From a virus (taxonomy: Duplodnaviria > Heunggongvirae > Uroviricota > Caudoviricetes): a stretch of DNA of 5,362 nt. The stretch lies in the IMG/VR virus record IMGVR_UViG_2537562194_000008. One strand, written 5' to 3'. The position numbers were made by a program. Below, in pieces: positions 3,001 to 5,362 of this stretch (positions are counted from its first letter, which is position 1; each line of letters begins with the position of its first letter).

Positions 3001-5362
3001 TTTTTTTAACTGAATTGAATTCAATCAAAATAACATAAGTCCAACAAAAACATAAAGTGCGAAATGAATGCCAGCTCCATTTATTTCGCACTATAAAAGA
3101 TTAAAAGTTGCAATAAAATAATAAAATGACTCAGTTACGAAAACCAATAAACTGTGGCCAGTAGTGAGTCGCTCATCATCGGGCTTTTTGGCGAATGAAA
3201 TTTAGCTACGCTTTCGAGTCTCATCGTCTTCCCCTCTTGCCCTGTTTGACCATCAGGACGCCGTTAACTATTACATGACGCTCGCCTTTGCTGTCTCGGT
3301 TGTACTTGAGCACTGTTCCTCTTGCGCAGGAAAGCATCCTCGCCACTTCGGTCTGATTGCCTCGTGTCTGGATAAGAAGCTCTGGTATCGTTTGAATTGT
3401 GGCGTTCATGCGTTCTCCAGTTCGGTGATTTTTATTCCAAGCCGTCCGCCTGGTACTTTCACACCACGAATTATGCGAATGTCATCGAATTGCTCGTCGT
3501 CTTCCGCAAATCCGGCATGGATAAGGGAGTCGAGTAAACCCTTCAGGATGTTATCTAGGTCGCGGCGGCGGGAGTCTGGAACGTCTGCGATTACTTTGAT
3601 GCGGAGTCGTGATTTGGTGAAAATATCTAACTTGAGTTGGTGGATGATTTGCTGAACGTCTTTTCGGTATTTCTGGCCTTTATCGCTGATGTAGTATTGG
3701 CTTCCCCGTCTTCGCCAGTAGGTATTCACCGACGGCGGGTATGGAAGCACAAACTGATATTCGTTCATGACTTAATCTTCCCCTCCTTCAGCAGTATCGC
3801 CTGCGTCCTGATCACGCCTTCGAGGTGGTAAAGTCTGGCGTCTTTGTTGTCGAGAATCCTTGTGCGTCGGTCGATCTCCGCGTGGCAGTCACTACAAGCC
3901 CATGCGCCGATCAGGTCGTCAGGCTTCATCCCCGTTCCACAAATTCCAGCCATCCGGTAATGTGCCAGAACTGTAGTTTCAGGATTGCCATTGCATACGC
4001 CGTAAATACGTACCTGGCATTCTCTGCCGCGCGCTTCTTTGCGTAGGTTAGCCATTTACCTTCCCTCGCAATTGAAGAATTGACTGAAGGTCTTTTTTAA
4101 TAAATATGCGAGTGCGAATTGAGCAGTAGTTTTCCTTCATTCTGGCGTAGTAATAGTCCTTTCTTTGCTTAAGTTTGTTGGCATCCGCTGTCATCCAGTC
4201 TTTTACAGCAAACTTAATTAGCCAGCGGTGGCAGAGATACCATTTCAGGTAATCACTCATCGTCTTCTTCCTCGTACATTGAGCTATTCGGATCGCTCAT
4301 CAGTTCTGCACAGCAGTGCTCACACACGTGAACTTCCAGCACATGCAGCTTCTGACCGCAGTTAGCGCACGTTAAAGCTCGCTCGACGCTTTCTTTCTGG
4401 TATTGAAGGGATTGGGATGGGCTAAGCATTATTGGATTCTCTGCATCATGAGAAAGACAATCATGGCGGCGCGAAGGGGATTTTCATGTATAGCTCGCTT
4501 AGATTTACAGTAGGCCACACCGCGTGCACCCCACTCGTCTTCATCGAGATTGATAATGCTAATCCTGTATTTTTCAATAATCGGCCATGAGTCTGCTGGG
4601 TTTGCGCATGGGTTAAAGGATCCGCGCTCAACTTCTACTTCAACTGCGTCTCCGTTTACAATGTCTCCCTCAAATGAGACAAACACCATATCGCCATTCT
4701 CACCTTCTTTGTAATCCGGCGATCCGTTATGAATGGCTTCGAATACCGCCACGTTAATTTCAAAATCACTTAACTGTGAATAATCCATTGTCATTTCCTC
4801 GCACGATGTCTTAGCCACCGGATATCCCACAGGTGAGCCGTGTAGTTGAAGGTTTTTACGTCAGATTCTTTTGGGATTGGCTTGCGTTTATTTCTGGAGC
4901 GTTTCGTTGGAAGGTATTTGCAGTTTTCGCAGATGATGTCGGTGATACTTCGTCGCTGTCGTCTCATTCGTACCTCCTGTCGGTAAATCTGACACCATGA
5001 CCAATAGCCCAGGCTGTTGTGAACCGCCCCGGAAATCCTGGAGACTAAACTCCCTGAGAAAGAGGTAAACAGGATGACTAAAAATACTCGTTTTTCCCCC
5101 GAAGTCCGTCAGCGGGCGATTCGTATGGTTCTGGAAAGTCAGGATGAATATGACTCACAGTGGGCGGCAATTTGTTCCATTGCCCCAAAGATTGGCTGTA
5201 CGCCGGAGACTCTGCGTGTCTGGGTTCGCCAGCATGAGCGGGATACCGGGGGCGGTGATGGTGGGCTCACCAGCGCTGAACGTCAGCGTCTGAAAGAGCT
5301 GGAACGTGAAAATCGTGAACTGCGCCGCAGTAACGATATCCTTCGCCAGGCTTCCGCTTATT

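Follow-up and report, generated by a model that had tools for sequence, protein, structure and literature searches.

The window analysed here, a stretch of 5,362 nt, carries part of a lambdoid nin–Q region and runs at its far end into an insertion sequence. It is 100% identical to the chromosomes of 95NR1 and 95JB1, two EHEC O111:H- isolates from the 1995 Adelaide HUS outbreak whose PacBio genomes and IS content have been published (PMC6602927). The EHEC host suggested by an earlier note on this DNA, a model's reading of the sequence alone, is therefore borne out, though as O111:H- and not as the O157 or Shigella lineage it had named. Of 5426 complete E. coli genomes, 3745 have some match to the 344 nt from window position 5019, such that the presence of the IS by itself says little about lineage. 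The features at the boundary between phage genes and IS are as follows:

4791..4967, minus strand: ninE, intact, 58 aa (matches Pfam NinE PF05322 over the full length, E = 7e-44; annotated as NinE family in 95NR1)
4964..5019, minus strand: 3′ remnant of ninB, 56 nt, that is 17 codons, the stop and 2 nt (its translation is the NinB C-terminus)
4973..4978, minus strand: AGGAGG, the ninE Shine-Dalgarno sequence, 5 nt ahead of the start codon and preserved inside the ninB remnant (read from the sequence)
5020..5362, plus strand: left part of IS1203 (IS3 family), the first 343 nt of a complete 1310-bp copy (100% identity to IS1203-family copies)
5020..5044, plus strand: left terminal inverted repeat (IRL) of IS1203 (25-nt arms compared)
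5074..5362, plus strand: orfA of IS1203, HTH transposase N-terminal protein, 96 of 108 codons in the window (Pfam HTH_Tnp_1)
5112..5313, plus strand: IS positions 93-294 with all 13 diagnostic sites, the standard allele at each (pairwise comparison of IS copies)

The IS629-type element recognized by the earlier note is indeed one: by its identity to copies named by PGAP, we assign it to IS1203, an IS629 isoform of the IS3 family. Thousands of E. coli records hold IS1203-family copies to which the 343-344 nt in the window are 100% identical (E = 2e-179), and PGAP names identical copies ‘IS3-like element IS1203 family transposase’ in hosts including O157:H7, O111, O121 and other E. coli. The full copy (L001 12591-13900 in the locus fetched from 95NR1; chromosome 861244-862553) is 1310 bp long, begins with TG and ends with CA (TGAACCGCCCCGG...CCGGGGCGGTTCA), and its 25-nt terminal arms (L001 12591-12615 against 13876-13900) are 88% complementary, as expected in size (about 1.2-1.5 kb) and in its imperfect inverted ends for the IS3 family. 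The left end, TGAACCGCCCCGG, with the terminal repeat TGAACCGCCCCGGAAATCCTGGAGA, has its first base at window 5020 and not 5019; the earlier description of the sequence was accurate to within one base. Full-length orfA matches Pfam HTH_Tnp_1 (E = 2.4e-12) and orfB matches rve (DDE; E = 9.4e-28) as well as HTH_21 and rve_3, the two frames lying in -1 phase with a programmed frameshift annotated by PGAP, which is the two-ORF organization of the IS3 family. The Rfam ALIL frameshift pseudoknot is found in the full IS (121.5 bits, gathering score 50), where it starts at window 5355; the window itself, searched whole at the gathering threshold, yields no RNA family. IS1203 was discovered in O111:H- and is an isoform of IS629, whose subtypes are 4-5% apart (PMC3271280), and the authors of the 95NR1 genome report 99% identity of its IS1203-type element to IS1203 of O111:H- strain PH (PMC6602927). 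In length, TG...CA repeats, orfA/orfB, frameshift and ALIL the element resembles IS1203/IS629 (IS3 family, IS51 group) of EHEC and Shigella; it differs from the typical element in having no 3-bp target duplication and in bridging two non-contiguous prophage segments. A scan of window 4700-5362 on both strands for sigma-70 promoters and terminators gave no match, so that on this weak negative neither an outward IS-borne promoter reading into ninE nor a terminator has any support.

The phage gene cut by the IS boundary is ninB, whose product belongs with the lambda Orf-family recombination mediators. The minus-strand frame leaving the IS runs for 18 codons, the first of them completed by the first IS base, and its TGA (4966..4964) overlaps the ninE ATG (4967..4965) as ATGA, just as the earlier note had read it. 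Its translation is the C-terminus of the intact NinB WP_000814614.1 of RM9131 and 11128, and the intact gene of RM9131 (L002 8535-8945) matches Pfam NinB PF05772 over profile positions 1-131 of 131 (E = 1.5e-55); together these identify the truncated gene as ninB, of which 56 of 411 nt are left, and not as a gene at the ninD position as had been supposed. Alignment to IS-free relatives, the comparison that the earlier note had proposed, shows that the upstream frame does not end naturally at the boundary: these relatives, with many O111 genomes among them, match the window up to the IS, continue past 5019, diverge there save for a shared TG, and then carry a 136-codon NinB ORF. The breakpoint lies at 5019|5020, with a 2-nt ambiguity where TG (5020-5021) also occurs in uninterrupted ninB. 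The IS boundary and the truncation of the nin gene directly upstream of ninE are thus confirmed. Between the IS-internal stop and the TGA the remnant contains no in-frame ATG, GTG or TTG, such that it could not be translated by itself; ninE retains its ribosome-binding site beside the deletion. The identity of ninX was confirmed by Pfam, as was that of ninE, and the order ren-like gene, hypothetical gene, ninB, ninE is also found in the free phages mEpX1 and mEp235.

The other end of the IS does not lie in ninB. In 95NR1 the right terminal repeat (IRR) is joined to ATGATCTGAAACTG..., the 3′ third of a lambda-type portal gene that covers only positions 292-354 of the Pfam Phage_portal_2 profile, followed by head and tail genes. 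The left flank is thus the 3′ end of ninB and the right flank the 3′ part of the portal gene, two segments that are not contiguous, and the flanks (TTG|IS|ATG) hold no target-site duplication. The earlier note had called for the right end and a 3-4 bp duplication to be sought; the right end was found at the portal fragment and the duplication is absent. Three other identical IS1203 copies in the loci that we fetched have clean 3-bp duplications: one in the RM9322 lysozyme gene (GTC), one at a second site shared by RM9322 and RM9131 (GAT), and one in ninD of GDSC2BY4G (GTA). The missing duplication in the window therefore reflects later rearrangement and is no argument against membership of the IS3 family. 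The GDSC2BY4G copy (L005 9633-10942) bears comparison, being an identical IS in the same orientation relative to ninE and lying some 100 bp upstream of a ninE with 98% identity. There, however, the IS has ninD on both sides together with the GTA duplication, and the prophage retains cI, cro, O/P and terminase genes, none of which holds at the window locus; the GDSC2BY4G copy is an independent simple insertion.

The prophage in which this IS resides is integrated between ybhC and ybhB, the attachment site of lambda. In 95NR1 its order is int, lysozyme, holin, a nanS-like esterase, Q, ylcG and (on the opposite strand) lpxR; then ninH, rusA, DUF1364, a hypothetical gene, ninF, ninX, ninE, ninB′ and IS1203; and finally portal′, head and tail genes, J, lom and tail fibre, followed by nleH, cif and espJ, with the nin–Q–lysis block inverted relative to the head–tail block. 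Neither cI, cro, N, O/P nor terminase is annotated between ybhC and ybhB in 95NR1, and neither repressor, N, O/P nor terminase in the same interval of the reference O111 strain 11128. An inducible lambdoid prophage is not what these genomes contain at this site: the portal gene is truncated, int abuts the lysozyme gene, and the immunity, replication and terminase genes are unannotated. As the prophage of 11128 has the same gross structure as that of 95NR1, it was already defective in the 11128 form, and we regard it as a long-degraded, effector-carrying lambdoid prophage whose nin–Q block had lost its early promoter before ninB was deleted, with no early promoter beyond the IS. The module resembles the lambda nin region (ren-ninB-...-ninE-...-ninH-Q, as in mEpX1 and mEp235) in that ninB adjoins ninE, but it is separated from the replication genes and pR, inverted relative to the head–tail genes, and the bearer of an lpxR moron.

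Two further arrangements in this prophage are recorded in their own right. Within L001 2893-4480 (95NR1) the int start lies 13 nt from the stop of rrrD (lysozyme), and the lysis–Q–nin block reads towards int; this is an old inversion and deletion common to 11128. The lpxR gene (lipid A deacylase; window 2050-3009, plus strand) is an opposite-strand moron between ninH and Q, and window 3153-3224 (minus strand) holds a 72-nt remnant of another antitermination gene directly 3′ of ninH (PGAP). This suggests that lpxR either accompanied a different Q module or took the place of one. A 2026 preprint describes PasD1/PasD2 sRNA genes at most 10 kb from Q, plus LpxR, in more than 98% of matches.

To place the window junction among related strains we consider searches for each junction across 5426 complete genomes, with one place listed per record. 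The exact ninB′|IS junction occurs in two of these, 95NR1 and 95JB1. The IS|portal′ junction, by comparison, is present in 34 complete genomes, as is a junction between a ren-like gene (WP_000145948) and the IS, and 30 genomes (11128 and 29 further O111 genomes) have both, spaced 1309 or 1310 bp apart, or one IS length, in all nine of the pairs checked. From this spacing the common O111 state is ninE-ninB-hypothetical-hypothetical-ren-like|IS|portal′. That state shares its portal junction with the window locus and is 1311 bp longer, which makes the window junction a strain-specific, IS-associated deletion, and the conserved IRR|portal′ junction argues for deletion and not translocation. What 95NR1 and 95JB1 have lost comprises the 5′ 355 nt of ninB, the two hypothetical genes and the ren-like gene (L002 8591-9901 in RM9131). 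Four genomes keep the portal′ junction but have another left flank; with RM9322 added, the junctions are these:

95NR1 and 95JB1: left flank ninB′ (56 nt), standard IS, 1311 bp missing relative to 11128, portal′ junction
SF4-1: left flank ninB′ (153 nt), variant IS, 1217 bp missing relative to 11128, portal′ junction
8B: left flank ninE′ (63 nt), variant IS, 1478 bp missing relative to 11128, portal′ junction
RM9322: ninE′|standard IS|tail-fibre C-terminal gene, 1372 bp missing on the left

Microhomology at the window breakpoint amounts to 2 nt (TG), and to 0-1 nt at the three other junctions, which says nothing either way about microhomology-mediated joining with IEE.

The copy of the IS resident in the common O111 state is not identical to that in the window. 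It is 1309 bp long and annotated as frameshifted, with 13 differences from the window IS that include a 1-nt deletion at position 164 (coordinates L007 13834-15142 in 11128, L002 9902-11210 in RM9131, L006 9424-10732 and L008 3842-5150). The window copy has the same sequence as standard copies from other locations. The resident copy is a mosaic in which all of its 12-13 differences from standard IS1203 fall in positions 93-294; from position 295 to the end it is standard in 11128, RM9131 and 8B, and SF4-1 has one extra difference, at 514. Between the ren-like gene and portal′ this copy has no target duplication either (flanks AAG and ATG). As all 13 diagnostic sites are standard in the window, its IS is not simply the resident copy with a trimmed flank. 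Strain 9662 (L010 1751-3060) has the same flanks as the common state, but its IS is of the variant type only at positions 93-141 and standard from 164 onward, which restores the frame; it thus carries a partial gene-conversion tract between IS copies.

We consider it plausible, with a probability of about 0.5, that the window junction arose through a second insertion of IS1203, into ninB, followed by recombination between the two IS copies. In this sequence of events ninB would have received a standard IS1203 oriented like the resident copy, and homologous recombination between the two direct copies, with a crossover 3′ of IS position 294, would have removed the intervening DNA together with one IS equivalent. 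The standard 5′ IS end would then sit on the old portal junction; NinB and three small genes are in any case gone from a prophage that was already non-inducible. In favour of these two steps is the pairing of a standard allele at all 13 sites with a flank that is the resident copy's portal junction, and published work describes IS629/IS1203 as a leading cause of small EHEC deletions (PMC9943667, PMC3271280). Positions 295-1310 are identical in the two IS types, so that a crossover there would leave no trace. The search of the 5426 complete genomes found none with the two-copy intermediate, ninB::IS1203 together with the resident copy. Moreover, the conversion in 9662 left the flanks unchanged, such that a standard 5′ end in 95NR1 is no proof of a second insertion, and SF4-1 and 8B make it evident that adjacent deletion in one step, or local hopping by the variant copy, takes place at this very IS too.

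The main rival to the two-step account is accordingly an adjacent deletion followed by conversion, which we hold to be a serious though less probable explanation. Here the resident IRL would have been joined to a site in ninB 1311 bp away by an intramolecular event, either ‘sloppy’ strand transfer by the transposase or an IEE-assisted reaction with transposase supplied in trans, and the 5′ 300 bp of the IS would later have been converted to standard by one of the approximately 30 other IS1203 copies. Both component steps have counterparts at this locus: SF4-1 (1217 bp) and 8B (1478 bp) have IRL-side deletions at the same IS that keep the variant alleles, and 9662 shows partial conversion of this very copy. 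There is also the 2-nt TG microhomology at the breakpoint. Deletions adjacent to IS629, ranging in size between a few nt and over 40 kb, have been reported with IEE, which is present in O111:H8 (PMC9943667), and the role of the IEE protein in them is documented (PMC9943667; bioRxiv 10.1101/2023.06.07.543989). For IS629-associated small structural polymorphisms and IEE-linked adjacent deletions in EHEC, PMC9943667 cites Ooka 2009 and Kusumoto 2011. The window deletion is like these IS629/IEE-linked deletions in that it starts at an intact IS terminus within a prophage and in that such deletions vary in extent (1217, 1311, 1372 and 1478 bp), but its IS 5′ end is not that of the resident copy, a difference that favours recombination between IS copies, or conversion, over a plain adjacent deletion. 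Against the adjacent deletion, the copy-out-paste-in route by which the IS3 family moves does not of itself predict deletions in the donor flank (bioRxiv 10.1101/2023.06.07.543989), and the conversion tract would have to span all 13 sites, at least 202 bp, and yet end within the first 92 nt of the IS.

It is unlikely, to our minds, that the junction was instead copied from elsewhere, a ninE-ninB′|IS1203 arrangement having formed by simple insertion when IS1203 entered the ninB gene of a second lambdoid prophage of that cell and then been recombined into the window locus, with homology on the ninE side and on the IS side serving the transfer. Such templated copying would account in one event for both the deletion and the standard 5′ end of the IS, and O111 genomes offer substrate for it, with IS copies numbering more than 30 and many lambdoid prophages whose nin modules are near-identical. 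On the other hand, with one place listed per record, no second ninB′|IS junction was seen, and the junction is confined to two genomes of one clone.

Far less tenable than any of these, and refuted by the full-length record, is the reading put forward in the earlier note, in which IS1203 simply inserted into a nin gene of a functional prophage, between the early promoter side and the nin–Q array, blocked read-through from the early promoter to nin–Q with a polar effect on Q, and so rendered the prophage defective. The IRL junction does lie within the nin gene directly upstream of ninE, and the genes downstream are tightly coupled, as this reading would have it. However, the IRR flank is a portal fragment and not the rest of ninB, no target duplication is present, and there is no early promoter side beyond the IS from which transcription could be blocked. 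Nor can the IS be what made the prophage defective when cI, cro, N, O, P and terminase are unannotated in the prophage of 95NR1 or of 11128 and int adjoins the lysozyme gene, the regulatory, replication and terminase genes thus being already absent from the annotation of both strains. Least credible of all is a false junction from repeat collapse at the IS copy, for while IS copies are a classic cause of misassembly and the 1311 bp deleted approximate the length of the IS, the identical junction appears in two separate PacBio assemblies, 95NR1 and 95JB1 (PMC6602927), not one base is missing from the IS terminus, and independent strains have analogous but different junctions.

Across these strains, the four independent IRL-side deletions (1217, 1311, 1372 and 1478 bp; ends within L002 8423-8684, window equivalent 4852-5113) have endpoints within 261 bp around the ninE start and sizes near the IS length of 1310 bp. 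It is improbable, in our estimation, that this clustering expresses a mechanistic rule, be it a preference for about one element length (local re-insertion or ‘sloppy’ strand transfer) or a ninB–ninE hot spot for IS1203; with three or four events, the clustering may be due to chance, a hot spot or selection. A separate rearrangement, of no bearing on the window, is seen in RM9131 (L002 and L003), where the lysis–Q–nin–ren block is inverted relative to 11128 between the lysozyme-gene IS and the nin-side IS, and RM9975 has a ren-like|IS junction as in RM9131 at matching coordinates. The IS beside the tail-fibre C-terminal gene of RM9131 is itself flipped (rrrD-N′|IRR..IRL|tail fibre). Homologous inversion between IS copies and replicative inversion were both considered for RM9131 and RM9975 and set aside, since neither predicts a flipped IS at the tail-fibre gene.

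The components described here are all known biology in a published genome: a characterized IS, a known class of IS-driven prophage microdiversity in EHEC, and an effector-type prophage remnant, and the junction itself has little importance beyond bookkeeping. One lesson is more general: where an IS terminus meets a truncated phage gene at a window's edge, a simple inactivating insertion should not be assumed. The window IS is what a 1.3-kb deletion left behind in a prophage that, in 95NR1 and 11128 alike, had already ceased to function. Its ninB′|IS junction is a clone-specific marker for the strains of the 1995 Adelaide outbreak, carried by 2 of the 5426 complete genomes, and the related set of junctions is one more example of IS629/IS1203-driven microdiversity in EHEC prophages.
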